Source: Rhodobacter capsulatus SB 1003 | GTDB lineage: Bacteria > Pseudomonadota > Alphaproteobacteria > Rhodobacterales > Rhodobacteraceae | Assembly (NCBI RefSeq): GCF_000021865.1 | Contig: NC_014034.1 | Coordinates: 180,001 to 212,000, forward strand | Length of the DNA stretch: 32,000 bases | Reading direction: 5' to 3' | Shown here: positions 11,455 through 28,598 of the stretch, piece by piece | How the letters are laid out: the number at the start of each line of letters is the position of its first letter | Position numbering within the stretch: position 1 is the first letter of the stretch | Translations under genes and position numbers: made by a program | The notes under the pieces: model-generated | Database searches by the model: none | What the model was told of the DNA's origin: nothing | Seen by the model: the letters and a program-made list of their open reading frames with translations, nothing else

Positions 11455-12432
11455 CTATTTCAGATTCTTGGCCGAAGCCTGGATCGCCTCATATTGCCCA
11501 TGCGGGCGGAAACGCCAGAGGTAATCGGGCAGCACCGCCGCCATCGGCGTCGGCGTGATGCCCAGATCGGCAAAGGTCTTCGCGGATTTGCCCACGACAT
11601 TGTGACGGCCGAGGTTCTTCAGCTGGTCGGTGGTCAGGATGCGGTTGGTGATCAGCCCGCCGGTCAGCCATTGCACGGTGTCGCCGATCGCCGCGGTGGT
11701 GCGGGCGACGACCTGCGGCAGGCCGATGACGATGTTCTTGCGCCCGATCACTTTCAGCATCAGCTTCATGATGTCTTCGAAGGTCTCGACATCGGGGCCG
11801 CCCAGCTCATAGGTGCCCTCGGCCTCGCCCAGGATGCCCTGCACCGCGGCGGCGGCGACGTCATCGACATAGACCGGCTGGAATTTCGTAAGCGGTGCGG
11901 TGATCGGCAGGAACGGGCCGAATTTCGCCATCGCGGCGAAGCGGTTGAAAAAGCCGTCCTCGGTCCCGAAGATCACCGAGGGACGCAGGATCACCGCCTT
12001 GGGGAAGGATTTCAGCACCGCAAGCTCGCCCCAGCCCTTGGTGCGGGAATAGGCGCTGTCCGATTCGTTGTCGGCGCCGATCGCGGAAATGTGAACCAGC
12101 TTCGAAACGCCCAGCTCGGCGGCGATGCGGGCGATCCGCCCGGCGCCATCGGCCTGCACGTCCATGAAGGTGTTGCGGCCTTCGTTGACCAGGATGCCGA
12201 CGCAGTTCACCACCGCATCCGCGCCCTGCATGGCGGTCCGCACCGAGGCATCGTCGCGGATGTTGCAAAAGAACGGTTCGACCTGACCCACGGCGCCATA
12301 GGGTTTGACGAACAGGGCCTCGTTCGGGCGGCGCACGGCGACGCGGACGCGCCAGCCTTCCTTCGCCATGCGTCGGGCAATGTAACGCCCCACGAAACCC
12401 GAACCGCCATAGATGGTGACAAGCTTCGACAT
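11455..12432 (-). CDS. NAD(P)-binding SDR, complex I NDUFA9-subunit-like family protein
   Basis: MSKLVTIYGGSGFVGRYIARR Rossmann motif at the chosen ATG (12432), with AGGACGGA upstream. The track's extension to 12594 runs nearly to the tRNA and has no coding character. Confidence 0.88.
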   Translation of the reverse strand: MSKLVTIYGGSGFVGRYIARRMAKEGWRVRVAVRRPNEALFVKPYGAVGQVEPFFCNIRDDASVRTAMQGADAVVNCVGILVNEGRNTFMDVQADGAGRIARIAAELGVSKLVHISAIGADNESDSAYSRTKGWGELAVLKSFPKAVILRPSVIFGTEDGFFNRFAAMAKFGPFLPITAPLTKFQPVYVDDVAAAAVQGILGEAEGTYELGGPDVETFEDIMKLMLKVIGRKNIVIGLPQVVARTTAAIGDTVQWLTGGLITNRILTTDQLKNLGRHNVVGKSAKTFADLGITPTPMAAVLPDYLWRFRPHGQYEAIQASAKNLK

Positions 12433-12556
12433 CGTTCCGTCCTCATTGCATACCGTCGTGCACTGATTTAGCCGCAGGACCCCGGTCAAACAAGTCCCGC
12501 GTGGCAGGAGGGTAGGGCATCTGACAGGTCGGTCAAATTTTTCTTGCGGACCCCTG

Positions 12557-12585
12557 TTGACACTCCCTGCTGGCCCGGCTAAACC
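12557..12585 (+). promoter_or_regulatory. Putative sigma-70-type promoter of tRNA-Leu
   Basis: Perfect -35 TTGACA (12557-12562), 17-bp spacer, weak -10 TAAACC (12580-12585). The mature tRNA 5' end lies 16 nt downstream. Confidence 0.4.
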
Positions 12586-12600
12586 CCGGCTCACGAAGAC

Positions 12601-13719: not shown

Positions 13720-13857
13720 TCTTGTCTGCCTTGAACTGTCACAGCGATTTTGACGGACAGGGGGAGATTGCGCCCCCCGCGGCCGGAAGGCTGTGTTCCG
13801 GGAGAGGGGACGCAGGGGAAGATGCGCCGGGCGATGGCGGGAAAGCCGCGCAGGAGG

Positions 13858-16800
13858 TCATGCTTTCCCGGTTCCTGTCAGGCCGAACTGCACCGCAAGC
13901 TCGGCAATGTAGTCGGCGGCCTTTTGCTGTTGCACGGCGCCCAGCCCGTGCCGGGTCAGGATGTCGCGCTGCACCGCTTCGATCTCGGCCAGTTGCTTGG
14001 CGTCGAAATTCGAGATCGTGACGCTGTTCTGATGCCGCCGGTGAATGTTCTTCGAGGCGGTGTTGAAAGCGATCCCGCCGCGTTCCAGCAGCCACAGATA
14101 GACCAGCCAGTCGCCGACGAAGCGCACCGATTCCAACTCGGTGCGGTGCTCGGCCAGAACCGCGCGCAGCGCCCCGGCCGCCATCACCACCCCCGAGGCA
14201 TTCGGGATCGTGTTCTTCAGATAAAGCACCTCGGAGATTTCCTCGGCGCCGTCGCGGCAGTAGTTCTGCGCCCAATGCGTCGGGCTGATCTTGTCGGTGT
14301 AATAGCGGTAGTTCGCCGCCAGCGGCGTGCCGTTCTCGTCGATCTGCGCCGAGTCGGTATAGGACAGCACCGTCCCCGGTTTCTCGAAGCCGCGCATCGC
14401 GGTCGACAGGAAATCGGGCTCGGCCAGATCGTCGGCCTCGGCGATCCAGACGTAATCGCCATGCGCCAGATCCAGCCCCTTGATCCATTGCCGGAACACA
14501 TTGCCCGAGTTCACCTCGTTCGGGACGATGCGGATCGGCCGTTCGCAGCGCGCGGCAAAGGCGCGGATGCGCTCCAGGCTGTCGTCGGTCGAGCGGTCGT
14601 CAAGCACGATGATTTCGTAGATCGGGAAATCCTGCGCCAGAACCGAATTCAGCCGGTCCTCGATGTAGCGGCCATAGTTGTAGTTCGGCACGACCACCGA
14701 CACCCGCGGCACATGCCGCCCCGACAGCCGCAGCAGATCCAGCGTGTATTTGGTGAAATCGGCCTCGGCCTCGATGTAGTCGCGCGCGGCGGCCACCATC
14801 TGCCCGCGCCGCTCGGGGTGGTCGATCAGGCTTTCCACCGCCTGCGCCATCCCGGCCGGGTCCTGACCGCCGACGGCCAGCGCCAGACCGCGTTCGGCCA
14901 GCACTTCGCAGCCGGTGGTGCCCGCGAACATCACGCAGGGCAGCCGGGCCGCCATCGCCTCCAGCACGACCGAGGGGAACGGATCCTCGCGCGAGGACAG
15001 CAGGAACACGTCCGAGGCGGCATAGAAGGGGACCGGATCCTGTTGCCGGCCGAGGAAGCGCATGTGCCCGGCCACGCCCAGATCGCGGGCCAGGGCCTCG
15101 ATCTGCGGCAGGAAATGGATGTCGGCATGACCGATCCAGATCGCCTCGACCTTGCGGCCGAGCTCGCGCAGACGGGCCAGCGTGCGCACGAACAGATCGC
15201 CGCCCTTGCGGTGATCGACATAGCCCACGCCCAGAAGCAGCGTCGTGTCGGCATCCAGGCCCAGCTCGGCGCGCAGACGGGCGCGATGCTGCGCCAGCGC
15301 GTCCGAAGAGGCCAGCTCGTGCAGGTAAAGCCCCTGCGGCCGGATCTGCGCCCGCGGCAGCGACCGGCCCAGATAGGTCTCGAACTGCGCCTGCACCAGC
15401 GGCGCCGGGAAGACGACCTGATCGGCGTGATCGGCGACCAGCGTCATCTGCGGCCGCAGGTTCATCTGATCATAGACCGAGGCCATCTCGTGGATCAGCG
15501 ACACGGTGCGATAGCCCGCCTCGCGCAGCATCGGCAGGATCTCGGCGCTGACGGTGGTGTTGACGATCGCCACCTGCGCATCTTCGGTGCGCAGCCGCCG
15601 CAGCAGGCGGGTGCAGTTCTCGCCCGCCAGCGCCGGATCGTCGAGCACGACCACCTGCGCATATTGCGCATATTGCGTCACCATCTGACCGCCCTGCAGC
15701 AGGATGATCGTCACCTTGAACCCGTTTTGCACATAGTTCCGCGCCAGGTTCAAAAGCAGGATCTGCGCCCCGTGCGGATGCGCGTCATGGCCGACCAGCG
15801 TCACCATCCGCGGCACTTCGACCGGGTTCAGCGCCGCCCGCGAGGCTTCCAGATAGGCGTAACCGTATTTCGTGTCGGGCTCGAGATGCGCGCCCTCGGC
15901 CCATTCGTTCCAGGCATTGACGAAGATCACCCGCTCGTCGGGGGTGCGGGCATCGGCCAGCGTCCGGGTGACGGCGTTTTCCAGCCAGACGCGGTATTCG
16001 GCCGGGTTCGAATTGGCAAAGATCGCGCCCTTGTTCTTGCGCCGCGCGGTGTTGTCCCAGGACGGGCAGACCGAACGGTAAAGCTTGTAGTCGGGCATCG
16101 GATAATTGCGCGAGCGTTCGACATAGGACCGCCAGTCATAGATGATGCCGTCAAACTCGGGCGAGAGCCCCGGCACGCGGTCGGTCAGATTGTCGGGCGA
16201 ATAGTTGTTGGGCGGGAATTCCACCGCCGCATCAAAGCCGTATTCCGCCGGATCGACGGTTTCGAAGCTTTGCGGATAGGCCAGATAGATCTCGCCGACG
16301 CCGTTCTTGCGGCACCAGTCGCGCCAGCGCGCCGAGGTTTCGGCCACGTTCGGCATCAGGCTCGGGCGATAAAGCAGGATCAGCGGCTTGCCGTCGATGC
16401 GGATGTAACGCGGATCGCGCAGATAGGGCGCCAGTTCGGTGATGAAGTCGAGATCGTCTTCGGGGCTGTGGTTTTGCGAGATCAGCAGTTCCTGATCCAG
16501 CCCGTCCCAGCGCCGCGACCAGTTCTCGTTCGCCCAGCAGATGCAGAAGGGGAAATCGAGATCGGGCGTGTCCAGCCAGTTCCGCACCGGCTTTTCCAGA
16601 AGACGCTTGCCGCCGAACCAGTACCAGTAGAAGCAGAAGCCGCCGATGCCGTAAAGCTGCGCCAGCTCGATCTGCTTGCGCTGCACATTGGTATCCAGAA
16701 GGTTGTACTGGCCCAGTTCCGGAACCGGCTCGTGCGGCTGGTGATGGCCGGGGAACTGCGGTTGCGCCGGGCCGACATTCGTCCATTCGGTGAAACCCTT

Positions 16801-19800
16801 GCCCCACCAGGCGTCGTTTTCCGGGATGGCGTGGAACTGCGGCAGGTAAAAGGCGATCAGCCGCGCCTTCGGATTGCTCAGATCGGTGGTCTGGCGACGC
16901 GGCACGAAGGTGTTCGTCTCGGAGATCAGCACCGGCGGCATCGGTTCGGGCGCGGGCGCGACGGGGGCGGGTGCGACGGGCGCCGCCGGTTCCGGGGCAG
17001 GCGCGGCGACAGGCTGCGGTTGTTCGGCGACGGGGGCGGGTTCCGGGGCGGCGACGGGCATCGCAACGGGCGCCGCGACCGGGGCGGGGGCGGCGGCAAC
17101 CGGCTGAAACTGCGCCTGTTGCCGCTGGATCGCCTGCAGCTGCGCCGCGACAGCCTCGCGTTCGCGTTTTGCTTCCTGCCAGGCCTGATAGAACTGCGTG
17201 CTGCCCAGAAGGAAGCCGGTCTTGCTCAGCACCTTGTCCTTGAAGCGCAGCTTGCGCGTCATCGGCACCGGCAGGTAATGCCAGATGAACCGCGCCGTCG
17301 CCGAGGCCGACCGTCGGCCGTTCCGCGTGATCCAGCGCGTGCCGGTCACCACCACCCGCATCGGCGCGGTGATCCGCCACGAGGTGCTGGACCGCAGCAT
17401 CGCGATCGTTGTCTCGTGCTGGGCGATCACCCGGTCCAGATGCGCGATGTGGTGATAAAGCGCCTGCATCTGCACATGGTTCTGATCGCGTTCGCCGATC
17501 AGCTGCGTGTCGCGTTCATGCAACAGCGCCTGCACATGCGCCAGCTCTCCGGCACGGGCCTGCAGCTGCTGCAGGATGTCGGTGCGATCGGCCAGGGTCT
17601 GCTCCAGCCGCAGGCTGCGATCGGTCAGCTGGCCGCGGGTCTCGGTCAGCTGTCCCCGCGCCTCGGCCAGATGCTGACGGGTCTGCGACAGCTCGGTCAG
17701 CTGGCTGTTGGCCTCCGTCAGCTGGACCCGGGTCTGCGTCAGCTCTCCGCGGGTCTCGGTCAGCTGGTCGTGGGTTTCGGCCAGCTGGTCGAAGGCCTCG
17801 GACAGCTTCGCGCGGGTGCCGGTCAGCTCCTCGCGGGTGCCGGTCAGCTGCGCGACGGTCTCGCCAAGTTTCGCCCGGGTGCCGGTCAGCTCCTCGCGGG
17901 TTTCGGTCAGCAGGCCGCGGGTCTCGGTCAGCAGGCCGCGGGTGTCCAGCAGCTGCTCGCGGGTGTCGGTCAGCTGGTCGAAGGTCTCGGTGAACTTCCC
18001 GCGGGTTTCGATCAGCTCCTCGCGGGTGCCGGTCAGCGCGGCCCGGGTCTCGGTCAGCAGCTCATGCGCCCCGGCCAGCTGCTCGCGGGTTTCCGCCAGC
18101 TGCGCCGAGGTGTCGGACAGCTTGACCCGGGTTTCGGCCAGCCCGTCACGGGCTTCGATCAGCCGGTTCTGGGTCTCGGTCAGCTGTTCGCGGGTTTCGG
18201 TCAGCCGCCCGCGGGTTTCGGTCAGCTCCTCGCGGGTGCCGGTCAGCTGCTGATGCAGCTCGCCAAGGCGGGTTTCGACGGCGCGACGTTCGCCCCGTTC
18301 GGCTTCCAGCCCCTCGGACACCGCCGCCAGCTGCGCGGTCGTCTCGGCCTTTTCGATGCGTTCCTGCTCCAGCTCGGCGGCGGCGTCGGTCAGCGCCCGT
18401 TCGGCCGTGGCCAGCCGGGCGACCAGCTCGTCGCGCTCGGCCTGCAGATGCTCGATCTGGGTCTGGCTGGCCGTCAGCTTCGCCTCGAGATCGGCCAGAC
18501 GCAGCATCAGATCCTGTTCCAGCTGCCACCGTTCGGTCTCGATCCGGCTGCGTTCCGCCAGACCGGCCTCCAGCTTCGCCCGGGCCTCCGAGAGCTGCTC
18601 TTCCATCTGGGCGATGCGGGCCTGTGTCGCCTCGTCGCGCTGGCCCTGTTCGGCCGCGCTGTCCTCAAGCCGCTTCGCGGCATCGTCAAGGCGCTGCTGC
18701 AGCATCTGGCCGGTGCTGCCAACTTCCGCCAGCCGCGCATTCAGCGCGTTGATCTCCTTGACCTTTTCGCTCAGCAGGCTTTGCGCCTGCATCAGCTCGT
18801 CGGTGCGCATCCGCACCGCATTCTCGCGTTCCGCCAGCCGCGCGCTCAGATCCGAGATGAAGGATTCGTTCTTGCGGTTCAGCTCGGCAACCGTGCTGTG
18901 AAGCTCCCAGATGCCGCCGACATTGCGGGTCATGTCCTCGTAGCGGGCCTGCAGGTCGAGATGCTCGTTTTCAAGCGTGCGCAGCGTCGTCTGCACCTGC
19001 GCCAGCATCCGGTCGGCGTCGCGCTGGGTCGGCAGCGTCAGCCGTTCCATCTCGTCAAGCTGCGCGCGCAGCCCGTCAAAGGCGGCCATCACCTCGGCCT
19101 TGTTCGGATCGGCGCACAGATCGGCCAGCGCGCGATAGATCTTCAGCGCCATCCCGGCGGTGTAATCGATCGCTTCCAGCGTGCCGGTATCGCCCGCGTG
19201 GTGGCGGTACTCCTCCGAGATGAAGGAATCCGCCTCTTCGGCGATCTCGTCGATCCGGCCCAGACGATCCAGCCCGAGATCGCGGCTGAGCCGTTCCGTC
19301 TCGGTCGCCCAATCCGCCATCAGGCCCGCGTAATCGACGAAGCTGCGCCGCAGGCCGCGGCTGAACATCTCGGCATCCAGCACATGGCGCATCCAGAGCA
19401 GCACGCCGCGCCGCAGCGGGATCCGGTCGCGGCTTTCCAGCGACCGGGCCACGTCCAGCGGGTTGCGATAGGGCAGGATCACCCGGGTCTCGAAGCCTTC
19501 CTCGGCCAGCGCCTCGATGACCGGCGGCGCCAGTCGGCAGACCCGCGGTTCCTTGAGCACCAGGCTGTAGCGGTTGCCCTTTTCCGTCCGCAGCCAGCTG
19601 CGCAGATTGCTGCGATAGGCGGCCGAGACCTCTTCGGGCAGGGCGTCGAAATCGATGTGCGACCAGTCGGACCAGGCGCTGCCGATCGTCTTCAGGAACT
19701 CCTCGTTGAGGGTGTTCAGGACGAGGGGCTCCCAATGGCCGGTCGGGTTGCTCTCGTTGGCGCCGATCAGCTCGGTCGGCAGGGCATAGCCCGCGATGTT

Positions 19801-20094
19801 CAGCAGGCGGCTGAGCATGCTGGTGCCGGAGCGGTGCATGCCCAGAACAAGAAGGCAGATCGGGGTCGTGTTCTGGGGCTTGCGGCGGCGCCCGGCGGGG
19901 GCGGGGGCGGCCTGCGCGGGCCGCCGCGACGACGTGGATTTGAGCGGAATTGCAGCGTTTCCGACGTTCTTTGGCCCAAGGTTTTTCATGCTTTGCCTTT
20001 GCTGTAATTCCGATTTTCGGGCGTGCGGCCACTGTGTCCGGCTGGAAATCGGGTGTAACGGGACCGGGCACGCCGTCAAGTCTGTTTGCGTCAT
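13858..20094 (-). CDS. Giant multidomain polysaccharide biosynthesis protein: sulfotransferase / long coiled coil / Pro-Ala linker / WbsX (GH99-like) / GT4 / GT2
   Basis: Approximate nt map: sulfotransferase 19860-19200 ([36 protein letters not shown]). Coiled coil 19110-17400. Linker 17103-16933. WbsX-like 16868-15835 ([36 protein letters not shown]). GT4 15810-14725 ([22 protein letters not shown]). GT2 14715-13861 ([34 protein letters not shown], EADD). An alternative ATG at 19989 would remove 35 aa. Confidence 0.9.
   Translation of the reverse strand: [2078 protein letters not shown]
16933..17103 (-). repeat. Low-complexity Pro/Ala/Val linker (57 aa) inside the giant CDS
   Basis: [57 protein letters not shown], with degenerate PAPVAA-type reiteration. 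Confidence 0.85.
17608..18246 (-). repeat. In-frame tandem array of 30 heptad units (21-bp period), consensus L-T-E-T-R-x-x
   Basis: [35 protein letters not shown] ... [14 protein letters not shown]: 29 units of 7 aa plus one of 10 aa (LTE+LSQTRQH), 213 aa in total. An exact 26-nt copy CGGGTGCCGGTCAGCTCCTCGCGGGT occurs at 17813-17838 and 17876-17901 (63-bp higher-order period). Confidence 0.95.
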
Positions 20095-20127: not shown

Positions 20128-20931
20128 TCAGCGTTCCGAGAGGATTTTGCGGTGGTGGCGATGCAGCAGCAGCATTCCCAGCGCGCCGATCAGCAGCGAC
20201 ACCCCGTAAACATAGGCTTCGGACACGTAAACCGCGTCATAGGTGTCATAAATGCCCTTGCGCATCATCATCACGACATGGGTCGGCGGCACCAGCAGGC
20301 TGATGATCCGCACCGGCTCGGGCATCTGGTCGATCAGGAACAGCACCCCCGCCACAAGGAACATCGGCCGGTTCAGCACCGCCCAGACCATCTGCCAGGC
20401 CGGAAAGGTGCTCATCAGATAGCAGTTCAGCAGCCCGACCGCGGTGCCCAGTGCGATCAGCATCCCCCAGGCGCGGCCAAGCGCCGGGAAATTCAGGTTG
20501 ATCTGGCTGTGCTGCGTCGCGATGGCGACGGCGATGACGATGGCGAAGACCTGCAGCTGCGTCAGCGTCGTCAGGATCAGCCGCGCCGCGATCGCGTCGA
20601 TGTAGGTCACGCTCGGATAGGCCAGCAGCGCCTTGGAAAAGCGGATCGACATCGCGACGTTGATCGAAATCGCGTTATAGGCGGTCAGGGTCAGATATCC
20701 GCTGGCGTAGAACAGGATGAAGCTTTGCCCCAGCGGCGGCTTGTGCACGATCATCGAGAACACCACCGAAAGCAGCGCGATCGCCGCCACAGGTTCCGCG
20801 ACGGTCCAGAAATAGCCGCCGATGGACTTGCCGTAGGTCGTCGTCATCTCGCGCAGGATCAGCGCGAAGACGGCGCGGGCGCCGATCAGCCTGCTCCGGT
20901 TGGTCCGGACGGAAACGGCGGCTTTTGCCAT
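20128..20931 (-). CDS. kpsM: Capsular polysaccharide ABC-2 transporter permease
   Basis: 267 aa, six hydrophobic segments, N-terminus ...LILREMTTTYGKSIGGYFWTVAEP typical of the ABC-2/KpsM family. ATG at 20931 with GGAGG 9 nt upstream. Paired with kpsT and kpsE. Confidence 0.88.
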   Translation of the reverse strand: MAKAAVSVRTNRSRLIGARAVFALILREMTTTYGKSIGGYFWTVAEPVAAIALLSVVFSMIVHKPPLGQSFILFYASGYLTLTAYNAISINVAMSIRFSKALLAYPSVTYIDAIAARLILTTLTQLQVFAIVIAVAIATQHSQINLNFPALGRAWGMLIALGTAVGLLNCYLMSTFPAWQMVWAVLNRPMFLVAGVLFLIDQMPEPVRIISLLVPPTHVVMMMRKGIYDTYDAVYVSEAYVYGVSLLIGALGMLLLHRHHRKILSER

Positions 20932-20989
20932 GGAAACGGGCCTCCGAGAGGGGGTTCAGCACGTGTTCCCTAGTGCTTTTTCGCTTGCA
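20932..20989. promoter_or_regulatory. Divergent kpsM / kpsE intergenic control region
   Basis: Only 58 bp separate the two divergent start codons. It contains the CACGTG palindrome (in AGCACGTGTT) and the locally AT-richest stretch, TAGTGCTTTTTCGCTTGCA. No promoter hexamers could be assigned confidently. Confidence 0.35.
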
Positions 20990-22243
20990 ATGCGAGGGAC
21001 AAATAACCATGAGTTGCCTCACCTCGATGGCGCGACGGGAGTAAGGGCGATTAACAAGCAGCTGTCGGAAGCGGCCGATGCCGCGGTCAAACGGGCACCG
21101 AAGCCGATCCCCAATCCTGCCGCGGCCCGGCCGCGGTTCCGGCACAAGGTGCTTTTTTCCAGCTTCGTGCTCGGGGTTGTCGCCCCGACCGTTCTGGCCG
21201 TCGTCTATCTGTATCTGATCGCCGCCGACCAATATGCCTCGAAGGTGGGCTTCACCGTCCATTCCGAAGACATGAGTTCCGCCGGCGCGCTGCTGGGCGG
21301 GCTGTCGATGCTGACGCAAAGCAGCTCCTCGGATGCCGAGGTGATCTACGAATTCATCCAGAGCCGCACCCTGGTCGAGCGGATCAACCGCAAGATCGAT
21401 CTGGCGCAGGTGTTTTCGCGTCCCGCCTTCGATCCGGTCTTCACCTATGACACCGACGGCACGATCGAGGATCTGGTCGATTACTGGCAGCGGATGGTGC
21501 GGATTTCCTATGCCTCGAACAGCGGCCTGATCGAGGTCGAGACCCGCGCCTTCAGCCGCGAGGATGCGCTGGCGATCGCCCGCGAGATCGTCGCGGAATC
21601 GACCGCGGTGATCAACGAGATGTCGGCGATCGCCCGCGAGGATGCCACCCGCTACGCGCGCGAGGAACTGGCCGTGGCGATCGAGCGGCTGAAACAGGCC
21701 CGCGAGGAACGCACCCGGTTCCGCTCCAAGACCCGGCTGATCGATCCGGCGGCGGATGTGCAGGGGCAGATGGGGCTGATGACCTCGCTCGAGCAGCAGC
21801 TGGCACAGGCCTATATCGACCTGAACCTGACGCTGGAAACCTCGTCGGGCGACGATCCGCGGGTGTCGCAGTCGCGCCGCCGCATCGATGTGATCCAGAC
21901 CCTGATCGAACAGGAAAAAAGCAAGTTCGGCATGGGGGATACGGAAAACCCCGATGTGGAATCGAGCGAGGATTACCCGACGCTGATGGCCGAATACGAA
22001 CGGCTGAGCGTCGATGTCGAATATGCCAATTCGGCCTATCTGGCGGCGATGGCCTCGCTTGATTCGGCCAAGGCCGAGGCGCAGCGGCAAAGCCGCTATC
22101 TGGCCAGCTACACCACGCCCTCGATGGCCGAGGCCTCGACCTATCCGCAACGCGGTCTGATTGCCGGGCTGACGGCGGTGTTCCTGACGCTGGCCTGGTC
22201 GATCTGCGTGCTGATCTTCTACAGTCTGCGCGACAGGCGCTGA
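20990..22243 (+). CDS. kpsE: Capsule polysaccharide export inner-membrane protein (PCP-3, KpsE/CtrB family)
   Basis: N-terminal TM VLGVVAPTVLAVVYLYLIAADQYASKVGFTVHSE, a long periplasmic coiled region and a C-terminal TM GLIAGLTAVFLTLAWSICVLIFY. First ATG after kpsM is at 20990. The track start (TTG at 20900) would overlap kpsM. No SD is visible, so the start is uncertain. Confidence 0.82.
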   Translation: MRGTNNHELPHLDGATGVRAINKQLSEAADAAVKRAPKPIPNPAAARPRFRHKVLFSSFVLGVVAPTVLAVVYLYLIAADQYASKVGFTVHSEDMSSAGALLGGLSMLTQSSSSDAEVIYEFIQSRTLVERINRKIDLAQVFSRPAFDPVFTYDTDGTIEDLVDYWQRMVRISYASNSGLIEVETRAFSREDALAIAREIVAESTAVINEMSAIAREDATRYAREELAVAIERLKQAREERTRFRSKTRLIDPAADVQGQMGLMTSLEQQLAQAYIDLNLTLETSSGDDPRVSQSRRRIDVIQTLIEQEKSKFGMGDTENPDVESSEDYPTLMAEYERLSVDVEYANSAYLAAMASLDSAKAEAQRQSRYLASYTTPSMAEASTYPQRGLIAGLTAVFLTLAWSICVLIFYSLRDRR

Positions 22244-23032: not shown

Positions 23033-24148
23033 ATGGCCGACCAAACCCCGCTGCTGGGGCTGCCCCTCATCCTGCCGTCGCAGGCGCAAAAGCACGTCAC
23101 CCACAACGAGGCGCTGAGCCTGCTCGATGCGATCGTGCAGCTGGCCGTGCTGGACCGGGTGCGGACGGCGCCGCCCGCCTCGCCGCAGACCGGCGACCGC
23201 CACATCGTCGCCCCCGGCGGGGCGGCGGCCTGGACCGGGCAGGACGGGGCGGTGGCGCTTTGGACCGGCAGCGGCTGGCTGTTTGCGCAGCCGCAGCCGG
23301 GCTGGACGGCGCGGGATCTGTCGGACGGGGCGCTTTTGATTTTCGACGGCAGCCTCTGGGGGCCCGCTCCGGTCGCGACCGACAACCTGCCCGGGCTGGG
23401 CATCAACACCACGCATGACACCACGAACCGGCTTGCCGTCCAGGCCGCGGCGACGCTGCTCAGCCATGCGGGCGCGGGCCATCAGCTGAAGATCAACAAG
23501 GCCCTGCCCACCGATACCGCAAGCCTGCTGTTCCAGACCTCCTGGTCGGGCCGGGCCGAGATGGGCACGACGGGCAGCGACAGTTTCGCGATCAAGGTCA
23601 GCGCCGATGGCACGGCCTGGAAGACGGCGTTCAGCTTTGCCGGGGCGACGGGGCTTGCCTCGGGTCTCGCTGTGCAGCAATCGCGGACCGATGTCACGGC
23701 GGGGCGGTTGATGCGGGCGGATTGGGGCTACGGGCCGGGCAATCTGCTCGGCACGGTGGCACAAAGCGCGGGCGTGCCGACGGGGGCGGTGCTGGAACGC
23801 GGCACGACGGCGAACGGCGAATACATCCGCTTTGCCGACGGCACGCAGATCTGTTTCGCGCAGCGCCCGCTCGGGTCGATCATCGCGCAGGGCGCGGGGT
23901 CCTTTGCCGCGCCCTACCGGACCGCCGATGTCAGCTGGACCTATCCCAAGGTGTTTTCGGCCGCGCCGGTGGTGACCTGCCGCGGCGTGGCGCCGGTCGG
24001 GCTGACCCAGGACCGGCGTCTTTGCGCGGGCGGCGTCGGCGATCTGGACGCCACGGCGGCGACGGGCATTCATGTCGTGCGGCTGGGCGGCGCGGCCAAT
24101 GCCGATGTGTTCAAGGCCGATCTGATCGCCATCGGCCCCTGGGTCTAA
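23033..24148 (+). CDS. DUF2793-type phage/GTA tail-fibre-like protein with a C-terminal knob
   Basis: N-terminus MADQTPLLGLPLILPSQAQKHVTHNEALSLLDAIVQL...GDRHIV...AAWTGQDGAVALW..GWLF matches my memory of the DUF2793 signature. Middle part LGINTTHDTTNRLAV...HQLKINKA..DTASLLFQTSWSGRAEMG..GSDSFAIKVSADG..W. C-terminal GEYIRFADGTQICF... resembles tail-fibre tip domains. ATG at 23033 with GGAG 8 nt upstream. Confidence 0.7.
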   Translation: MADQTPLLGLPLILPSQAQKHVTHNEALSLLDAIVQLAVLDRVRTAPPASPQTGDRHIVAPGGAAAWTGQDGAVALWTGSGWLFAQPQPGWTARDLSDGALLIFDGSLWGPAPVATDNLPGLGINTTHDTTNRLAVQAAATLLSHAGAGHQLKINKALPTDTASLLFQTSWSGRAEMGTTGSDSFAIKVSADGTAWKTAFSFAGATGLASGLAVQQSRTDVTAGRLMRADWGYGPGNLLGTVAQSAGVPTGAVLERGTTANGEYIRFADGTQICFAQRPLGSIIAQGAGSFAAPYRTADVSWTYPKVFSAAPVVTCRGVAPVGLTQDRRLCAGGVGDLDATAATGIHVVRLGGAANADVFKADLIAIGPWV

Positions 24149-25065
24149 AGCCGCCGCAGCAGCGCCCCGGCATAAAGCGACAGCTGCCCGCGCAGGCCTT
24201 GCCGGTAAAATCCCGCGCGGCGGATCGCGGCCAGGCTTTGCAGCGGCGGCAGGCTGCGGGCGCGTTCAAAGGCCGCCAGAAGGGCGCGGTTTTCCGGCGT
24301 CAGCAGATCCTCGATCGCCCGCAGCGCGGCGATGTTGCGTTTGCACCAGTCGGAAAACCGCCCCGTCACCAGCATATGCGCCCGGACCAGCGTTGCCAGC
24401 GCGCCGCGGTTCGCGCCGATCACGTTGCTCTCGTGCTGACGATACAGCAGATGCGGCGTGTCGTCGAAGATCACCCGGCCGCCGATGCCGGTGATCACCT
24501 GATAGATCCACCAGTCATGGATCACCGTATCGGTGGTGCGCAGCGCGGCGGCGCGGATCGCCTCGGCCCCGGCGCGGTTGAGCACCATCGTATTGCCGCC
24601 CGCGATGTTCTGCACCAGCGCATGCGCAAAGGCGGCGGGTCGGGGCGCGCCGCGCGACAGCCGATGCCCGGTCAGATCCTCGTTCACCTCGAAGGACCGG
24701 CCGCAATACATCGCGGGCTGATCCGTCGGCCCCTGCGCCAGCGCCGCCGCCGCCACCTGCAGCTTTTCGGGCAGCCAGACATCGTCCTGATCGGAAATCG
24801 CCCGCAGATCGGTTTCGACCGGCAGCCGCAGCAGCGACAGGAAATTCTGCGCCGCCCCGGCCCGCGGCCCGGCCAGCAATGTCACGGCGATCCCGGGATG
24901 GGCGGCGGCCCAGCCCGACAGCACCTCCACCGTCGCATCGGTCGAGCCGTCGTCGCTGACGATCAGCCTTGCGGGCACAAGGCTTTGCGCGGCGAAACTG
25001 TCCAGCTGCGGCACCAGCCGCGCCGCGCCGTTCCAGGTCGCCATCAGGATCGTGACCGAGGCCAC
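24145..25065 (-). CDS. Family 2 glycosyltransferase, rhamnosyltransferase-like
   Basis: VTILMATWNGAARLVPQLDSFAAQS...LIVSDDGSTD and ISDQDDVWLPEKL motifs. Start set at the GTG at 25065 (8 nt after the rmlA stop). The ATG at 25044 is the alternative. The track ORF to 25413 overlaps rmlA. Confidence 0.85.
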   Translation of the reverse strand: MASVTILMATWNGAARLVPQLDSFAAQSLVPARLIVSDDGSTDATVEVLSGWAAAHPGIAVTLLAGPRAGAAQNFLSLLRLPVETDLRAISDQDDVWLPEKLQVAAAALAQGPTDQPAMYCGRSFEVNEDLTGHRLSRGAPRPAAFAHALVQNIAGGNTMVLNRAGAEAIRAAALRTTDTVIHDWWIYQVITGIGGRVIFDDTPHLLYRQHESNVIGANRGALATLVRAHMLVTGRFSDWCKRNIAALRAIEDLLTPENRALLAAFERARSLPPLQSLAAIRRAGFYRQGLRGQLSLYAGALLRRL

Positions 25066-25072
25066 CGCCGCC

Positions 25073-25948
25073 TTACCCTTCCAGCAGCTTGCGCAGGTAA
25101 TCGCCGTAATCGTTCTTGCCAAAGAGCTTCGCCCGGGCGCGCAGGCCCTCGGCATCGATCCAGCCACGTTCAAAGGCGATCTCGTCCGGGCTGCCGGTCT
25201 GCAGGCCCTGCCGTTTTTCCAGCGTGCGGACGAAATTGCCCGCATCCAGCAGGCTGCCATGCGTGCCGGTGTCCAGCCAGGCATAGCCGCGGCCCATCGG
25301 ACAGACGCGCAGGCTGCCCTCGGCCAGATACATTTCCAGCAGCGTGACGATTTCCAGCTCGCCCCGTGCCGAGGGGGTGACCTTGCGGGCGCGTTCGGGG
25401 GCGCTGCCATCAAGGAAATAAAGCCCTGTCACCGCGAAATTCGACGGCGGCACCGGCGGTTTCTCGATGATCGCGCGGACCTTGCCCTCGGTGTCGAAAT
25501 CCACCACGCCATAGCGCTCCGGATCGGCGACGCGATAGCCGAAGACGGTTCCGCCGGTCGCATGGGCATCGGCCTCGGCCAGCAGCGCCGAAAGCCCGTG
25601 GCCGAAAAAGATGTTGTCGCCCAGCACCATCGCCGAGGGGGCGCCGTCCAGAAACTCCTCGGCCAGAAGATAGGCCTGCGCCAGCCCGTCGGGCGAGGGC
25701 TGCGCGATATAGGTCAGGCTGAGACCCCATTGCGAGCCGTCGCCCAAGGTGCGCTTGAACTGCTCCTGATCGATCGGCGTGGTGATGATCGCGATCTCGC
25801 GGATGCCCGCGAGCATCAGCACCGAGAGCGGATAATAGACCATCGGCTTGTCATAGATCGGCAGAAGCTGCTTCGAGACGCCGATGGTGATCGGGTAAAG
25901 CCGCGTGCCCGAGCCCCCGGCCAGAATGATGCCCTTGCGTGTCGTCAT
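25073..25948 (-). CDS. rmlA: Glucose-1-phosphate thymidylyltransferase
   Basis: KGIILAGGSGTRLYPIT, SKQLLPIYDKPMVYYPLS, and YGVVDFD...EKP over 291 aa. Confidence 0.96.
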   Translation of the reverse strand: MTTRKGIILAGGSGTRLYPITIGVSKQLLPIYDKPMVYYPLSVLMLAGIREIAIITTPIDQEQFKRTLGDGSQWGLSLTYIAQPSPDGLAQAYLLAEEFLDGAPSAMVLGDNIFFGHGLSALLAEADAHATGGTVFGYRVADPERYGVVDFDTEGKVRAIIEKPPVPPSNFAVTGLYFLDGSAPERARKVTPSARGELEIVTLLEMYLAEGSLRVCPMGRGYAWLDTGTHGSLLDAGNFVRTLEKRQGLQTGSPDEIAFERGWIDAEGLRARAKLFGKNDYGDYLRKLLEG

Positions 25949-25949
25949 G

Positions 25950-26798
25950 TCAAATCTCCAGTTCTTTCAAAACCTTGGAAAGACCCGCCTGCCAGTCGGG
26001 CGCGGCGATGCCGAAATCGCGGGCCAGCGCCGCGCAGTCCATCCGGCTGTTGAGCGGGCGCAGCGCGGGGGTCGGATAGGCCGCGGTCGGAATGCCCGTC
26101 ACCGCCACCTTGCGCCCCGCAAGCGCAAAGATCTCGCGGGCGAAATCGGCCCAGCTGACCCAGGGGCTTGCCGCCGAAATGATAGGTGCCGCCGGGCTTG
26201 TCCGGCGGCCATCTTCCGCGCCATCAACGATCAGCGCCGCCGCGATATCGGCCGCGGGCGTCGGACCGCCGATCTGGTCCTCGACCACGTTCAGCGCGTC
26301 GCGGCTCTCGCTCAGCCGCAGCATGGTTTTCACGAAATTCGCCCCATGCGCGGAAAACACCCAGGAGGTGCGCAGGATCGCCGCAGCGCCCCCCGCCGCC
26401 CGGACGCCCTGTTCCCCGGCCAGCTTGCTGCGGCCATAGGCATTTTGCGGCGCCACCGGATCGGTCTCGACCCAGGGCGCGCTGCCCGCGCCGGAAAAGA
26501 CGTAATCGGTCGAGACATGCAGGAAGGGGATGCCCCGGGCGGCACAGGCCCGCGCCATCGCCGCGGGGGCCGCGCCGTTCACCACCGTCGCCGCGGCTTC
26601 CTCGGTCTCGGCCTTGTCCACCGCGGTCCAGGCGGCGGCATTGATCACCGCCTCGGCGTCGCTGTCCCGGATCGCGGCCGCGCAGGCTTCGGGATCGGCA
26701 AGATCGGCCTGCTCGCGTCCCAGAAACCGGGCCTGTGGCAGCTGGCGTTGCAATTCTGTCGCGACCTGACCCGTCCGACCAAACACGAGAACCTTCAT
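25950..26798 (-). CDS. rmlD: dTDP-4-dehydrorhamnose reductase
   Basis: MKVLVFGRTGQVATEL at the ATG at 26798, catalytic YGRSKLAGE, 282 aa. Its stop is 1 nt from the rmlA start. The track extension to 27035 overlaps the upstream ORF. Confidence 0.93.
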   Translation of the reverse strand: MKVLVFGRTGQVATELQRQLPQARFLGREQADLADPEACAAAIRDSDAEAVINAAAWTAVDKAETEEAAATVVNGAAPAAMARACAARGIPFLHVSTDYVFSGAGSAPWVETDPVAPQNAYGRSKLAGEQGVRAAGGAAAILRTSWVFSAHGANFVKTMLRLSESRDALNVVEDQIGGPTPAADIAAALIVDGAEDGRRTSPAAPIISAASPWVSWADFAREIFALAGRKVAVTGIPTAAYPTPALRPLNSRMDCAALARDFGIAAPDWQAGLSKVLKELEI

Positions 26799-26800
26799 TT

Positions 26801-27478
26801 TCAGCCCCTGACCCGAGTGTTGATACGCAAGTCGAGCCCGTCGAACAGGCCCGGTTGACCGATCGCCCGCGCGAAGGCGGGCAGGATGTCGCCCTCTTCG
26901 GCGCAGATCCGGTCGTAATCCAGCACCACCGGCGTGCCGATCCCCTGCCAGAAGGCCAGGATCGCCGCGGAGTCGTAATACCAGGCACCATCGGTGCTTT
27001 GATCGTCGGGCAGCGCCTTCTGGGCTTCCCAGCACCCGGTCTTGCGCAGCTGATCGGCGCGCGCGGCCCGCCAGTCGTCCGGATTGCGCAGCGTGATCAG
27101 CGGCACGATCCGCGCGAAGGTCGGGGCCAGCGCGGATTTCAGCGCAAAGGCTTCAAGCGGCGTGCGCAGCAGGCAGAATTCCTCGCTGCTGATGACCATC
27201 TCCGGGGCGGTTCCGCGCGCGGCCGCGATCTTTGCGGGAACCGCGGCAAGCCGGGCCAGATCGGGCAGCGGATCGCCATAGGACATCCGCGGCGTCGAGC
27301 GGATCTCGGGGCGCAGGAAGGTGTTGGCCAGGGTCCAGGCATTCGCTTCGGGAAAAACCGCAACCCCCGCCGCCCGCAGACGGGCGGCCGAAAGTTTCAG
27401 CGCCCGCTGGATCGATGTCGTCCCGGTCTTGTGGGTGCCGACATGCAGCCAGAGCGTGCCCGTTCCCGCCTGGTTCAC
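26801..27478 (-). CDS. Sulfotransferase-fold hypothetical protein inserted in the rml operon
   Basis: [16 protein letters not shown] (P-loop-like 5'-PSB) and [17 protein letters not shown] (3'-PB-like). A GTG at 27478 overlaps the rmlB TGA (GTGA). The stop is 2 nt before the rmlD ATG. The alternative GTG at 27532 would overlap rmlB by 58 nt. Confidence 0.65.
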
Positions 27479-28536
27479 CCCTTGACCCCCAGTCGCTGGC
27501 CGACGCCCTCGCGGTTCTGCAGCGCCCGCCACCAGCTTTCGTTGGCCAGATACCAGTCGACGGTGCGTTCCAGCCCCTCTTCGACGGTGACCGAGGGCCG
27601 CCAGCCCAGTTCGGTGCGGATCCGCGTCGGATCGATCGCATAACGGGCGTCATGGCCGGGGCGGTCGGTGACGAAGGTGATCTGATCGGCATAGCTGCCC
27701 GAGGCCTTCGGCCGCTTGCGGTCGAGGATCTCGCAGAGCGTACGGACCAGCTCAAGGTTGGTGCGCTCGTTCTCGCCGCCGATGTTGTAGCTGCGCCCGA
27801 CCGCGCCCTTTTCGACCACGGTCAGAAGCGCATCGGCGTGATCCTCGACATAAAGCCAGTCGCGGATGTTCGAGCCGTCGCCATAGATCGGCAGCGCCTT
27901 GCCCGCCAGCGCGTTCAGGATGATCACCGGGATCAGCTTTTCCGGGAAATGGAACGGCCCGTAATTGTTCGAGCAATTGGTCAGCAGCACCGGCAGGCCA
28001 TAGGTCTCGTGCCAGGCGCGGACCAGATGATCCGAGCCCGCCTTCGAGGCCGAATAGGGGCTGCGCGGATCATAGGGCGTGTCCTCGGTGAACTTGACCT
28101 GCGGATCATGCGGCAGGGACCCGAAGACCTCGTCGGTGGAGATGTGATGGAAGCGGAAGGTCCCGGGACGGCCGCGGCCTTCCCAATGCTGCCGGGCGGC
28201 CTGCAGCATCTGATAGGTGCCCATCACATTCGTCTCGATGAAGACGCCCGGCCCGTCGATCGAGCGGTCGACATGGCTTTCGGCGGCCAGATGCATCACC
28301 GCATCGGGCTGATGGCGGTCCAGAATGGCCAGGATGGCGGCGCCGTCGCGGATGTCGGCCTGCTCGAAGGCATAAAGCGGCGAGCCGGCGACCGAGGCCA
28401 CGTTGTCCAGACAGGCGGCATAGGTCAGGGCATCGACATTGACCACCGCATGACCGCGCGCGATCGCCAGACGCACCACCGCGGAGCCGATGAACCCTGC
28501 CCCCCCGGTCACGAGAATCTTCATGGCAAATTCCAT
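27475..28536 (-). CDS. rmlB: dTDP-glucose 4,6-dehydratase
   Basis: [13 protein letters not shown] and [15 protein letters not shown] (YxxxK). About 350 aa. The start is ATG 28536 or, more typical for the family, ATG 28524 (MKILVTGG). Confidence 0.96.
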
Positions 28537-28568
28537 TTCTTCTGGTTTGAAACAGGCTTACTTGCGCA

Positions 28569-28598
28569 GATTGCAAAGGACAACCGGCCTTTGCAATC
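28569..28598. repeat. Perfect 11-bp inverted repeat in the rmlC-rmlB spacer
   Basis: GATTGCAAAGG-ACAACCGG-CCTTTGCAATC. Relatively AT-rich for this DNA. No T-tract follows on the transcribed (minus) strand. Confidence 0.8.

Follow-up and report, generated by a model that had tools for sequence, protein, structure and literature searches.

How does a bacterium come to encode, beside a capsule-type exporter, one protein that joins a sulfotransferase fold to three glycosyltransferase modules through a very long helical rod? The window analysed here (the whole 32,000-nucleotide stretch, positions 180,001 to 212,000 of contig NC_014034.1) contains such a gene, rcc00167 of Rhodobacter capsulatus (SB1003 lineage). 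It is an uninterrupted ORF of 2,078 aa from the ATG of M1, and its product comprises, from the N-terminus, a sulfotransferase fold, helical rod, basic segment, Pro/Ala linker and WbsX, GT4 and GT2 modules (Table 1). We consider it a polymerase-terminator of the WbbB/O7 ORF6 type with a sulfate cap, and assign this reading, in which both the capping and the ruler functions are inferred, a probability of about one half. No sulfotransferase-terminated ruler was found in the literature searched, in keeping with the first-pass annotation, which knew of no characterised example, and a literature search returned no paper on rcc00166-170.

Table 1. Features of rcc00167 and the surrounding locus (positions in the window).
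Feature	Residues	Position	Strand	Basis or remark
NAD-dependent sugar epimerase/dehydratase-family gene		11455..12594	-	PF01370 and related families
Stand-alone sulfotransferase, 256 aa		12949..13719	-	PF13469 59 bits, PF00685 50.6 bits; identical to ADE83931.1
rcc00167, whole ORF	1-2078	13858..20094	-	ADE83932.1; locus tag rcc00167 inferred
N-terminal tail	1-75	19870..20094	-	Low-complexity, basic, poorly conserved
Sulfotransferase-fold domain	76-345	19060..19869	-	Sulfotransfer_3, AF2/Foldseek, conserved residues
Helical spacer	346-902	17389..19059	-	Candidate coiled-coil ruler, up to ~81 nm
Heptad array	610-830	17605..18267	-	~31 near-perfect L-T-E-T-R-x-x heptads; 21-nt DNA tandem repeat
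Conserved basic/aromatic segment	903-996	17107..17388	-	Opens with an 11-residue motif
Disordered Pro/Ala-rich linker	997-1075 (core 997-1055)	16870..17106	-	Composition and AF2 coil
WbsX/GH99-like module	1079-1417	15844..16860	-	PF14307 E=8e-134, full length
GT4 (GT-B) module	1429-1780	14755..15810	-	PF00534 E=8e-22, PF13692 E=2e-21, PF13439 weak
GT2 (GT-A) module	1796-2078	13861..14709	-	PF00535 E=3e-23, PF13641 E=2.5e-16
kpsM, ABC-2 permease		20128..20931	-	PF01061; NF050053 KpsM E=3e-18; identical to ADE83933.1
kpsE-family inner-membrane/periplasmic export protein		20900..22243	+	TIGR01010 BexC/CtrB/KpsE E=2e-59, full model length
kpsT, ABC ATPase, 227 aa		22248..22931	+	PF00005; named KpsT-1 in ADE83935.1
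Separate GT2 glycosyltransferase		24145..25413	-	PF00535 E=2e-12
rmlA, rmlD, rmlB, rmlC (dTDP-L-rhamnose synthesis)		25073..29233	-	PF00483, PF04321, PF16363, PF00908, all strong

The WbsX, GT4 and GT2 modules named in the first-pass annotation were all recovered by profile search with matches (WbsX, Glycos_transf_1 and Glycos_transf_2) that exceed the Pfam cutoffs. The WbsX module is presumed to be a glycosyltransferase of uncharacterised biochemistry and no sequence relative with a solved structure was found for it; in relatives, fusion of this module to RgpF and linkage to rml genes are both frequent. Within the GT4 module, Glycos_transf_1 covers residues 1605-1771 and Glyco_transf_4 matches weakly over 1442-1581; near residue 1703 the EX7E motif appears in the form D-x7-E. 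The Glycos_transf_2 match spans residues 1799-1929, and this module carries two acidic motifs, one of 10 residues and AEADD. The proposed Pro/Ala linker is also present, although its core measures 59 aa and not 57; it is 69% Pro+Ala and modelled by AF2 as coil (pLDDT ~40). Between rod and linker lies a segment with 18 K/R against 4 D/E, 11 aromatics and two helices whose hydrophobic moments (0.63 and 0.48) compare with a background of 0.24±0.13. Its motif occurs in 61 of 120 homologues, and within A2 its S, W, T, P and R do not vary. In fusions, SxSWRxTxP and the basic tail mark the junction of rod and GTs, and in stand-alone relatives they lie ~20 aa before the C-terminus, as expected for a membrane or polymerase-docking element. 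The segment is a candidate membrane-proximal anchor or docking site.

The surroundings are those of an ABC-transporter-dependent pathway. As first described, kpsM lies 33 nt upstream of rcc00167 on the same strand, and kpsE and kpsT are divergent from it; the true start of kpsE is probably near 21014 (the orthologue in the assembly L001 has 409 aa). Directly downstream of rcc00167, and absent from the first-pass annotation, is a stand-alone sulfotransferase with a canonical GTMKGGTT loop, whose PDB matches are heparan-sulfate 3-OST and NDST (E ~1e-13) and which aligns with the fused domain at the P-loop only. It is a candidate in-chain sulfation enzyme by these matches, so internal residues are probably sulfated too. 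The epimerase/dehydratase gene, downstream on the same strand and syntenic in L001 and L008, likely serves precursor synthesis, and the separate GT2 (306 aa in L001) is a candidate primer/adaptor or extra linkage enzyme.

The order of catalytic domain, coiled coil and glycosyltransferases is that of WbbB from K. pneumoniae O12. The WbbB-like order originally claimed therefore stands as a structural analogy, in both domain order and ABC-transporter context, but K. pneumoniae O7 ORF6, which has a methyltransferase-kinase, a coiled coil and two GT2 modules, is the closer match (PMC11231755). Methyltransferase/kinase terminators likewise occur in stand-alone and GT-fused formats (PMC11231755); among relatives of rcc00167, the stand-alone sulfotransferase with coil is WbdD-like and the GT-fused form WbbB-like. 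In eukaryotes, the capping of chains by sulfate is established: HNK-1ST acts in this way on LARGE1 matriglycan (PMC10955480).

Does the N-terminal domain cap the chain, or only decorate it? A possible but less probable alternative is that the tethered sulfotransferase modifies internal or near-reducing-end residues as the chain passes, with the coil serving only to oligomerise or scaffold the polymerase and chain length set by polymerisation versus KpsMT export. We know of no requirement for a cap in capsule-type KpsMTE export. A cap-binding module in the transporter is a hallmark of prototypical capped systems, and domain searches found no C-terminal carbohydrate-binding module (Wzt_C) in KpsT, whose length of 227 aa excludes one, so this hallmark, on which the first-pass annotation did not comment, is missing here. 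In the systematic set, 16 of 18 transporter ATPases linked to the family also lack such a module, the other two having a C-terminal extension of ~225 aa; Wzt_C is present in two sampled relatives. The sulfotransferase domain also diverges faster between strains (dN 0.16 vs ~0.015 in the GT modules), which would fit decoration under antigenic variation. Against this, it is not obvious what a decorating enzyme would gain by lying as much as 80 nm away from the polymerase, and a separate in-chain-type sulfotransferase already adjoins rcc00167 and is found again in L002 and L005, although either of the two sulfotransferases at the locus could be the in-chain enzyme. Furthermore, every coiled-coil protein characterised in such pathways is a terminator (PMC11231755), and the stand-alone sulfotransferase-coil format mirrors WbdD.

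A second question is whether the rod measures anything. It had been described as ~570 aa of heptad-rich helix; AF2 reduces this to ~546 helical residues (357-581, 602-727 and 764-902), whereas the heptad character is borne out by a 3.5-residue hydrophobic periodicity (z=5.6) reached in 0 of 500 shuffles and not significant in the GT-module controls. The spacer of ~80 nm also holds, at 81 nm for 546 aa, provided that these form one continuous coiled coil. This continuity is not proven, given two low-confidence breaks in the AF2 model (582-601 and 728-763); the pTM of the monomer model is low (0.23), and on modelling grounds the rod could fold back to ~33 nm. Much of the rod is a tandem repeat (TRF: period 21, 26.7 copies, 17692-18251) in which one heptad core position is Leu in 27 of 32 cases and the second is Thr in 22 of 32, making the oligomeric state uncertain. 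Strains differ here by indels of 7, 56 and 84 aa that keep the heptad register; a 21-nt repeat can only yield length changes in steps of 7 aa, which are therefore no proof of selection on rod length. It is improbable, and less probable than decoration, that the domain sulfates and terminates while rod length is untuned, the Rhodobacter expansion being neutral slippage and the helix folded back or flexible. Such slippage would account for the indels without selection, and the array has the highest dN/dS in the gene (0.6); the AF2 breaks and the wide range of spacer lengths across the family (163-1000 aa) point the same way. However, the coils of WbdD and WbbB are demonstrated rulers (PMC11231755 and refs 28 and 29 therein), significant periodicity extends beyond the array (residues 357-609, z=2.7), and residues 356-910, 555 in all, are free of proline. 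The sequence of the second AF2 break is indistinguishable from that of its helical neighbours.

The original assignment of the N-terminal domain as a sulfotransferase is well founded: relatives match PF13469, the AF2 fold (pLDDT 91.4, pTM 0.90, with pLDDT <50 at the first modelled residues, 70-72) best matches sulfotransferases, and the PAPS-binding residues are intact. The 5'-PSB loop is G85-M-H-R88-S-G-T-S92, with the RxG signature of PF13469 (PMC11625862), and the 3'-PB runs from R210 to S218 within a second motif of 11 residues that begins at 209. R88, G90, T91, S92, E122, K181, R210 and S218 are the same in all 87 relatives compared, and E122 is a candidate base. The dN/dS of the domain, 0.45, is below 1. 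Profile support comes from the relatives (18 of 20 match PF13469, best E=1e-9, and 6 of 20 PF00685) and not from rcc00167 itself, where Sulfotransfer_3 over residues 82-276 scores only 20-24 bits, below the Pfam gathering cutoff of 27. It is very doubtful that the domain is instead a P-loop kinase adding a phosphate cap, as with the kinase of WbdD, or a PAP(S)-binding fold without activity. Beyond the low score, a profile search against PDB sequences was marginal (E=0.2) and Foldseek gives comparable TM-scores (0.33-0.39) for PFKFB and nucleotide kinases; yet its best match is the sulfotransferase 4gox, followed by TPST1/2, CurM-ST, Stf0 and 3-OST, and most matches with TM >0.42 are sulfotransferases. 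There is no Walker-A lysine, GxxRSGTS is the sulfotransferase 5'-PSB pattern, R210-x7-S218 fits 3'-PB spacing, and none of the 20 relatives matches a kinase family.

The single minus-strand ORF of the first-pass annotation is confirmed, with coding-type position pattern (GC3 0.86) and intact alleles in the independent assemblies L008 (CP198954; 2,078 aa, 1 nucleotide difference across the 5' 2.7 kb) and L001 (CP061202; 1,929 aa). Translation may start at M36 (19989) instead of M1, giving 2,043 aa, a form identical to ETD03315/ETD79738 and, from M86 on, to ADE83932.1. On the other strand, an ORF of 2,085 aa (13750..20007) was rejected as a high-GC artefact with an R/G/Q-rich translation. That rcc00167 is really two or more genes is effectively refuted: several public annotations give only 1,024-1,222-aa products at its position, and CP198954 and CP198940 carry an annotated antisense ORF of 778 aa, but the same DNA in L008 holds the intact ORF, the short products are, where checked, identical C-terminal pieces, the antisense frame yields an R/G-rich translation, and the full architecture is conserved in other genera at 37-71% identity.

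Nor is the architecture singular, a point that the first-pass annotation did not raise. It is common, with at least 11,391 protein clusters (E<=1e-30) and at least 576 species, and the sulfotransferase-spacer unit is a portable module that stands in front of a wide variety of GT combinations (117 of 120 homologues). Genomic family ORFs consist of sulfotransferase and helical tail only in 34 of 73 cases (350-700 aa) and are GT fusions in 15 of 73 (at least 1,000 aa), and an ABC-2 permease and ATPase are adjacent in 15 of 49 systematic loci, only about one third, at a 10 kb reach and with low-sensitivity HMMs. Among the 120 homologues compared, none has a longer rod than rcc00167, and this extreme length is a trait of the Rhodobacter alleles, produced by expansion of the 21-nt repeat, and not of the family as a whole.

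As a sulfate-capping polymerase-terminator, rcc00167 would be the central assembly enzyme of a KpsMTE-dependent surface polysaccharide, probably rhamnose-containing and sulfated. Its C-terminal modules would lie near the membrane, held at the rod's base by the basic/aromatic segment, and would use dTDP-rhamnose and further donors to polymerise a chain attached to a lipid carrier. Oligomerisation through the helical residues would hold the PAPS-dependent sulfotransferase up to ~80 nm away, where only chains that reach it would be sulfated on the non-reducing terminal sugar. This sulfate would block the hydroxyl required to add a further sugar, and growth would stop there, with rod length setting a minimum chain length, while the neighbouring heparan-sulfate-type enzyme would sulfate residues within the chain. 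Slippage of the 21-nt repeat would shift the rod in whole heptads, and chain lengths may consequently differ among strains.

The giant protein begins with a domain that the first-pass annotation had read as a sulfotransferase fold with a P-loop. Profile searches with it give a divided answer, as the window sequence itself scores 20.3-24.4 bits against Sulfotransfer_3 (PF13469), below the Pfam gathering threshold of 27, but 18 of the 20 sequences in an alignment of the domain with 19 relatives (A1; 33-54% identity) match PF13469 (best E=1e-9). Six of the 20 also match PF00685, and many homologues carry a precomputed PF13469 match. A PDB search with the single domain sequence returned nothing meaningful and a profile search of PDB sequences only marginal sulfotransferase matches (E=0.2), so a comparison of folds was needed. 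The AF2 model built on A1 (pLDDT 91.4, pTM 0.90) has the olefin-synthase sulfotransferase 4gox as its best Foldseek match, followed by TPST1/2, CurM-ST, SULTs, Stf0 and 3-OST. P-loop kinases have the same general fold and, as one would expect, are also listed with similar TM-scores, but a kinase reading fails because the Walker-A lysine is absent from G-M-H-R-S-G-T-S and a 3'-PB motif is present. The two motifs quoted in the first-pass annotation were located at residues 85 and 209. The first (R88-S-G-T-S92) reads as a sulfotransferase 5'-PSB, “RXG in the PSB” being the PF13469 signature according to a 2024 review (PMC11625862), and R210-N-P-L-D-V-A-R-S218 has the R210-x7-S218 spacing of a 3'-PB motif. 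Residues R88, G90, T91, S92, E122, K181, R210 and S218 are invariant in 87/87 relatives. By position, E122 and K181 are candidate catalytic residues, and E122 would be the catalytic base by analogy with TPST2. From the fold and these invariant motifs, we conclude that the domain is a predicted, competent PAPS-dependent sulfotransferase, in agreement with the first reading.

Several public gene models lose this P-loop. Product lengths for the giant gene disagree (2,047, 2,045, 2,043, 2,039, 1,993, 1,990, 1,986, 1,982, 1,837 and ~1,024-1,222 aa), and the 1,993-aa and 1,986-aa forms (also the 1,837-aa form) begin at M86 and M93, which cuts it off. The protein is identical from M86 on to ADE83932.1 of SB1003, and from M36 on to ETD03315/ETD79738 of strains R121 and DE442. 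In CP061202, which carries a 1,929-aa allele, no stop codon interrupts the frame upstream of the annotated start, which reads ...[14 protein letters not shown]; since this upstream frame is open and conserved, the M86 and M93 starts are mis-annotated, and the true start would be M1 or M36. The annotations of CP198954 and CP198940 have a 778-aa antisense ORF across the repeats, leaving a 1,203-aa C-terminal fragment of the giant gene. The 2,078-aa ORF is nevertheless intact, with one nucleotide difference within the 5' 2.7 kb, and where the DNA was checked the 1,203-aa form is a gene-caller artefact. The remaining short entries are C-terminal pieces of the giant protein or of close variants and probably reflect the same artefact. 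Giant-gene annotations are wrong in several R. capsulatus genomes, having either truncated starts that lose the P-loop or split calls, and need correcting. The uninterrupted minus-strand ORF of the first-pass annotation holds, as does its unity as one gene, given the intact copies in CP198954 and CP061202: its codon-position GC (0.69/0.45/0.86) is of coding type and the same as in other window genes. A 2,085-aa ORF on the opposite strand was rejected as a real gene, as its translation is rich in R, G and Q and GC3 points to the minus strand as the coding one; it is the usual antisense artefact in 65% GC DNA. Promoter and terminator scans around the giant gene gave nothing above chance.

The sulfotransferase domain is followed by a rod rich in L, E, A, T, R and Q, with no proline at residues 356-910 (a 555-aa stretch). 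It shows a 3.5-residue hydrophobic periodicity (z=2.7 for residues 357-609, z=5.5 for 610-830, z=5.6 overall) that is not significant in globular controls. Residues 610-830 are made up of ~31 heptads L-T-E-T-R-x-x encoded by a 21-nt tandem repeat. Of the two core positions, one is taken by Leu and the second by Thr (22/32), and such a polar Leu/Thr core is unusual. The AF2 monomer (pTM 0.23) places helices at 357-581, 602-727 and 764-902 with two low-confidence breaks, of which the second is probably a fold-back artefact of single-chain modelling, because it lies within uniform repeats. The coiled coil of ~570 aa and ~80 nm first proposed is matched by the heptad periodicity and, if the helix is continuous, by a span of ~81 nm, but its helical residues number 546; folded into three segments, the rod would span ~33 nm. 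By periodicity and model, an extended candidate coiled coil appears to separate the sulfotransferase domain from the GT modules.

The rod varies between strains. R. capsulatus alleles differ in length by blocks of 7, 56 and 84 residues, which fall inside the heptad region, and both a 1,929-aa and a 2,078-aa allele occur naturally. The Pro-free stretch of the window allele is the longest of the 120 homologues compared (555 aa, against a median of 153), and in orthologues outside Rhodobacter it measures ~100-200 aa. Indels in multiples of a heptad follow automatically from the 21-nt repeat unit and do not prove selection on rod length. Compared with the CP061202 allele every domain has dN/dS <1. 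The sulfotransferase-coding part (dS 0.35, dN 0.16) stands apart from WbsX (~0.10 and 0.012), its dS being ~threefold and its dN ~tenfold higher than in WbsX or GT4 between these two R. capsulatus alleles, which suggests a mosaic 5' end exchanged by recombination.

Between the rod and the GT modules lies a conserved segment, residues 903-996, which opens with [11 protein letters not shown], has a net charge of +14 and 11 aromatic residues, and contains two strongly amphipathic helices; a Pfam scan of this segment found no family. In fusions, the motif SxSW[RK]x[TS]xP with its basic/aromatic tail occupies the rod/GT junction; stand-alone proteins made of a sulfotransferase and a coil have it ~20 residues before their C-terminus. 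The Pro/Ala linker reported in the first pass comes next (residues 997-1055) and is disordered, and the three GT modules claimed behind it are matched in the same order, all above Pfam cutoffs: WbsX at 1079-1417 (E=8e-134), GT4 at 1429-1780 (Glycos_transf_1, E=8e-22) and GT2 at 1796-2006 (E=3e-23). No solved sequence relative of WbsX was found, and a literature search on it returned almost only filarial “WbSXP” matches.

A database search for this domain order, suggested at the outset, found a domain, spacer and GT arrangement to be widespread. The sulfotransferase domain is present in 117 of the 120 best full-length homologues, N-terminal in 116, and is followed by a spacer and varied GT sets (WbsX+GT4+GT2, WbsX+RgpF, GT2 alone and others). 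An exhaustive profile search yielded at least 11,391 cluster representatives at E<=1e-30 (50% identity clusters), with the domain N-terminal in 149 of the top 150, and at least 576 species genomes encode the family, mostly Alphaproteobacteria including rhizobia and marine Rhodobacterales. By size, 73 complete genomic ORFs fall into classes of <350 aa (18), 350-700 aa (34), 700-1,000 aa (6) and >=1,000 aa (15), the count of stand-alone members being taken from complete genome ORFs and leaving out short metagenomic members, which are possibly truncated. In the 350-700 aa class the helical-type tail has a median length of 263 aa and SxSWRxTxP lies near the C-terminal end (~20 residues) in 10/38, and by analogy the layout of this class appears WbdD-like.

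Known pathways with terminators on coiled coils place the terminating enzyme always at the coil's distal end, in all-in-one (WbbB), partly fused (O7 ORF6) or separate (WbdD/WbdA) formats (PMC11231755). Like the giant protein, Klebsiella pneumoniae O7 ORF6 (a methyltransferase-kinase, a coiled coil and two GT2 modules) is one polypeptide in which a coiled coil in the middle joins an N-terminal terminator to polymerising GTs at the C-terminus, within an ABC-transporter pathway that uses dTDP-rhamnose and a further GT from a separate gene (PMC11231755). The distal domain of the giant protein is instead a sulfotransferase, its GT modules number three and include a WbsX-like one, its rod is several-fold longer, and its locus has KpsMTE without a Wzt carbohydrate-binding module, nor is such a module apparent within the terminator portion. 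WbbB of Raoultella terrigena / K. pneumoniae O12 has the same order of N-terminal terminator, coiled-coil ruler and C-terminal GTs in a single protein (Williams et al., 2017, cited in PMC11231755). It differs in that a beta-Kdo glycosyltransferase serves as the terminator and the Kdo cap is recognised by Wzt; for the giant protein, sulfate is the putative cap and there is no carbohydrate-binding module on the ATPase. In E. coli O9a / K. pneumoniae O3, WbdD consists of a kinase-methyltransferase followed by a coiled coil and a membrane helix at the C-terminus; it shares the distal catalytic domain, the coil and a membrane-proximal basic/amphipathic region, and its stand-alone format recurs in 34/73 genomic members of the sulfotransferase family. 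It differs in its chemistry and in recruiting a separate polymerase, WbdA, where the giant protein's polymerase is fused. The WbdD coil, at ~20 nm, is also much shorter than the giant-protein rod.

For the chemistry, a precedent comes from eukaryotes: HNK-1 sulfotransferase acting on LARGE1 matriglycan sulfates the terminal sugar, which removes the polymerase acceptor and ends growth (PMC10955480), so a sulfate cap is feasible. Unlike the system proposed here, this is a separate Golgi enzyme with no ruler, chain length follows from expression ratios, and only the fold class is common to both. Nearer in taxonomy are NodH and LpsS (Sinorhizobium meliloti) and KpsS (Mesorhizobium loti), alphaproteobacterial PAPS-dependent carbohydrate sulfotransferases, of which NodH is a PF13469 member with an RxG PSB loop and KpsS sulfates a capsule-type polysaccharide (PMC11625862); by their descriptions these are set apart as enzymes that decorate chains and have neither a coiled coil nor fused GTs. 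Group 3 capsule loci of E. coli encode coiled-coil putative methyltransferases, that is, coiled-coil modifying enzymes in KpsMT-type loci with natural variation in coil length, although these differ in chemistry, are not GT-fused as far as PMC13171606 states, and are likewise uncharacterised.

An ABC-2 permease and ATPase are present at the locus, with the 33-nt gap between the giant gene and the kpsM stop codon as first noted and kpsE/kpsT divergent, and likewise at the loci of CP061202 (L001) and of four relatives (L002, L004, L006, L007). KpsM matches NF050053 and KpsE matches TIGR01010 (E=2e-59). KpsT is of the short type (227 aa, NBD only), and a Wzt_C-like C-terminal carbohydrate-binding module was sought on it and is absent. 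A cap-recognising module of this kind on the transporter ATPase is a hallmark of prototypical O-antigen systems. Wzt_C was found in L004 and L007, and only 2/18 family-linked ATPases have a C-terminal extension of its size. Across 49 family loci, low-sensitivity HMMs made from five sequences placed an ABC-2 permease and ATPase within 10 kb in 15, and 10 of the 49 have two or more rml genes. Neither a KpsD outer-membrane exporter nor KpsS/KpsC beta-Kdo transferases were found among the genes scanned in the 32-kb window; these could be encoded elsewhere in the genome.

If no module on the transporter recognises a cap, is the sulfotransferase a terminator at all? The missing module speaks for the main rival, in which the N-terminal domain is a tethered decorating enzyme without a role in termination, and which we consider rather unlikely. 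Domain order, genomic context and diversity of formats fit the coiled-coil template (PMC11231755) and the HNK-1ST cap provides a precedent (PMC10955480), and for these reasons a polymerase-terminator with a sulfate cap is the favoured role of the giant protein by analogy, at a probability of about 0.5. As a polymerase-terminator it would extend the established model, not overturn it. The kind of system is known; what would be new is the capping chemistry proposed here, together with an extreme rod driven by repeats and a transporter of capsule type, although sulfotransferase candidates may already appear in a 2019 census of termination chemistries.

A second sulfotransferase is encoded beside the first. 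Among proteins of solved structure it is closest to heparan-sulfate 3-OST and NDST (E ~1e-13), which act within chains. The two sulfotransferases of the locus are not paralogues, as hhalign pairs only 27 residues at the P-loop, and they belong to different subfamilies. A second sulfotransferase also accompanies the fusion protein in the relatives' loci L002 and L005 and in 5/49 systematic loci. L002 comes from a distant relative in a metagenome, and the genes immediately upstream of its ABC transporter and fusion gene are a cystathionine beta-synthase-like gene and PLP genes of Cys/Met metabolism, which could be linked to sulfur supply.

The flanking genes are ADE83931 (sulfotransferase), ADE83933 (KpsM), ADE83935 (KpsT-1) and ADE83936 (DUF2793). 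The RcGTA tail-fibre gene rcc00171 codes for a DUF2793 protein and directly follows three genes of polysaccharide export (Hynes et al., 2016, PMC5026251), and by consecutive numbering from rcc00171 we infer that the giant gene is rcc00167. A literature search found no paper on rcc00166-170, the tag matches looking like prefix matches to other locus tags, and R. capsulatus literature on sulfated polysaccharide, the TspA preprint and the cysE1 paper contained nothing on this locus. It is not the RcGTA capsule-receptor cluster rcc01081-86, which is Wza/Wzb/Wzc-linked and ~1 Mb away (PMC10218006). Downstream on the same strand come the stand-alone sulfotransferase, an NAD-dependent epimerase/dehydratase and BacA/UppP, followed by housekeeping gltD and gltB; BacA/UppP may recycle lipid carrier for the polysaccharide pathway or be a mere housekeeping neighbour. 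Upstream lies kpsM, then the divergent KpsE-family gene, KpsT and rcc00171, and past these on the minus strand a GT2 gene and rmlA, rmlD, rmlB and rmlC. The region is flanked by two RTX proteins with calcium-binding repeats, of which one is a serralysin-like metalloprotease and the second is large and runs off the window end. The RcGTA tail fibre is reported to bind capsule (PMC10218006) and, with rcc00171 inside the locus, the polysaccharide made here might be a receptor.

Coordinates of features at the giant-gene locus and at related loci (window positions unless a locus is named)
Feature	Position	Strand	Remark
Giant gene	13858-20094	-	2,078 aa
Antisense ORF	13750-20007	+	rejected as a gene
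Annotated starts M86 (ADE83932.1) and M93 (WP_055256496)	19817-20094; L001 (CP061202) 9725-10000	- (window)	PAPS-binding P-loop removed
Sulfotransferase-coding part	19060-19869	-	compared with CP061202 allele
L-T-E-T-R-x-x heptads	17605-18267	-	residues 610-830
Basic segment	17107-17388	-	residues 903-996
Stand-alone sulfotransferase (ADE83931.1)	12949-13719	-	256 aa; directly downstream of giant gene
BacA/UppP, undecaprenyl-pyrophosphate phosphatase	10652-11446	-	end of same-strand gene string; position kept in L001 and L008 (CP198954)
DUF2793 gene (identical to ADE83936.1), RcGTA tail-fibre gene rcc00171	23033-24148	+	between kpsT and GT2/rml genes
RTX repeat protein	598-2358	-	flanks region
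RTX repeat protein	29261-31999	-	flanks region
778-aa antisense ORF	L008 2463-4799		called across repeats
Cys/Met-metabolism genes	L002 124-2671		upstream of ABC transporter and fusion gene

A broader reading can be offered as a long shot. Terminal sulfation would be a new and very widespread bacterial chain-termination chemistry, in a family of >10,000 protein clusters with WbdD-like and WbbB-like formats. The R. capsulatus ruler would be a hypervariable rod of ~60-80 nm, its length changing by slippage of the 21-nt repeat and tuning the thickness of a sulfated, rhamnose-containing capsule. In the attachment of gene-transfer agents and phages, this polymer would act as a receptor or as a barrier, a role put forward on the grounds that the locus also harbours the RcGTA tail-fibre gene.

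To our knowledge, every characterised cap in systems of terminator, coiled-coil ruler and polymerase is methyl, phosphomethyl or Kdo. A sulfate cap, if true, would add a new chemistry to the coiled-coil ruler mechanism and explain what a very large, so far uncharacterised family does (at least 11,391 clusters and at least 576 species). Both the ruler and the capping hypotheses are directly testable, as R. capsulatus SB1003 is genetically tractable, natural alleles lie 20 heptads apart and the sulfotransferases are separable, and the RcGTA tail-fibre gene ties the locus to a well-studied gene-transfer system.
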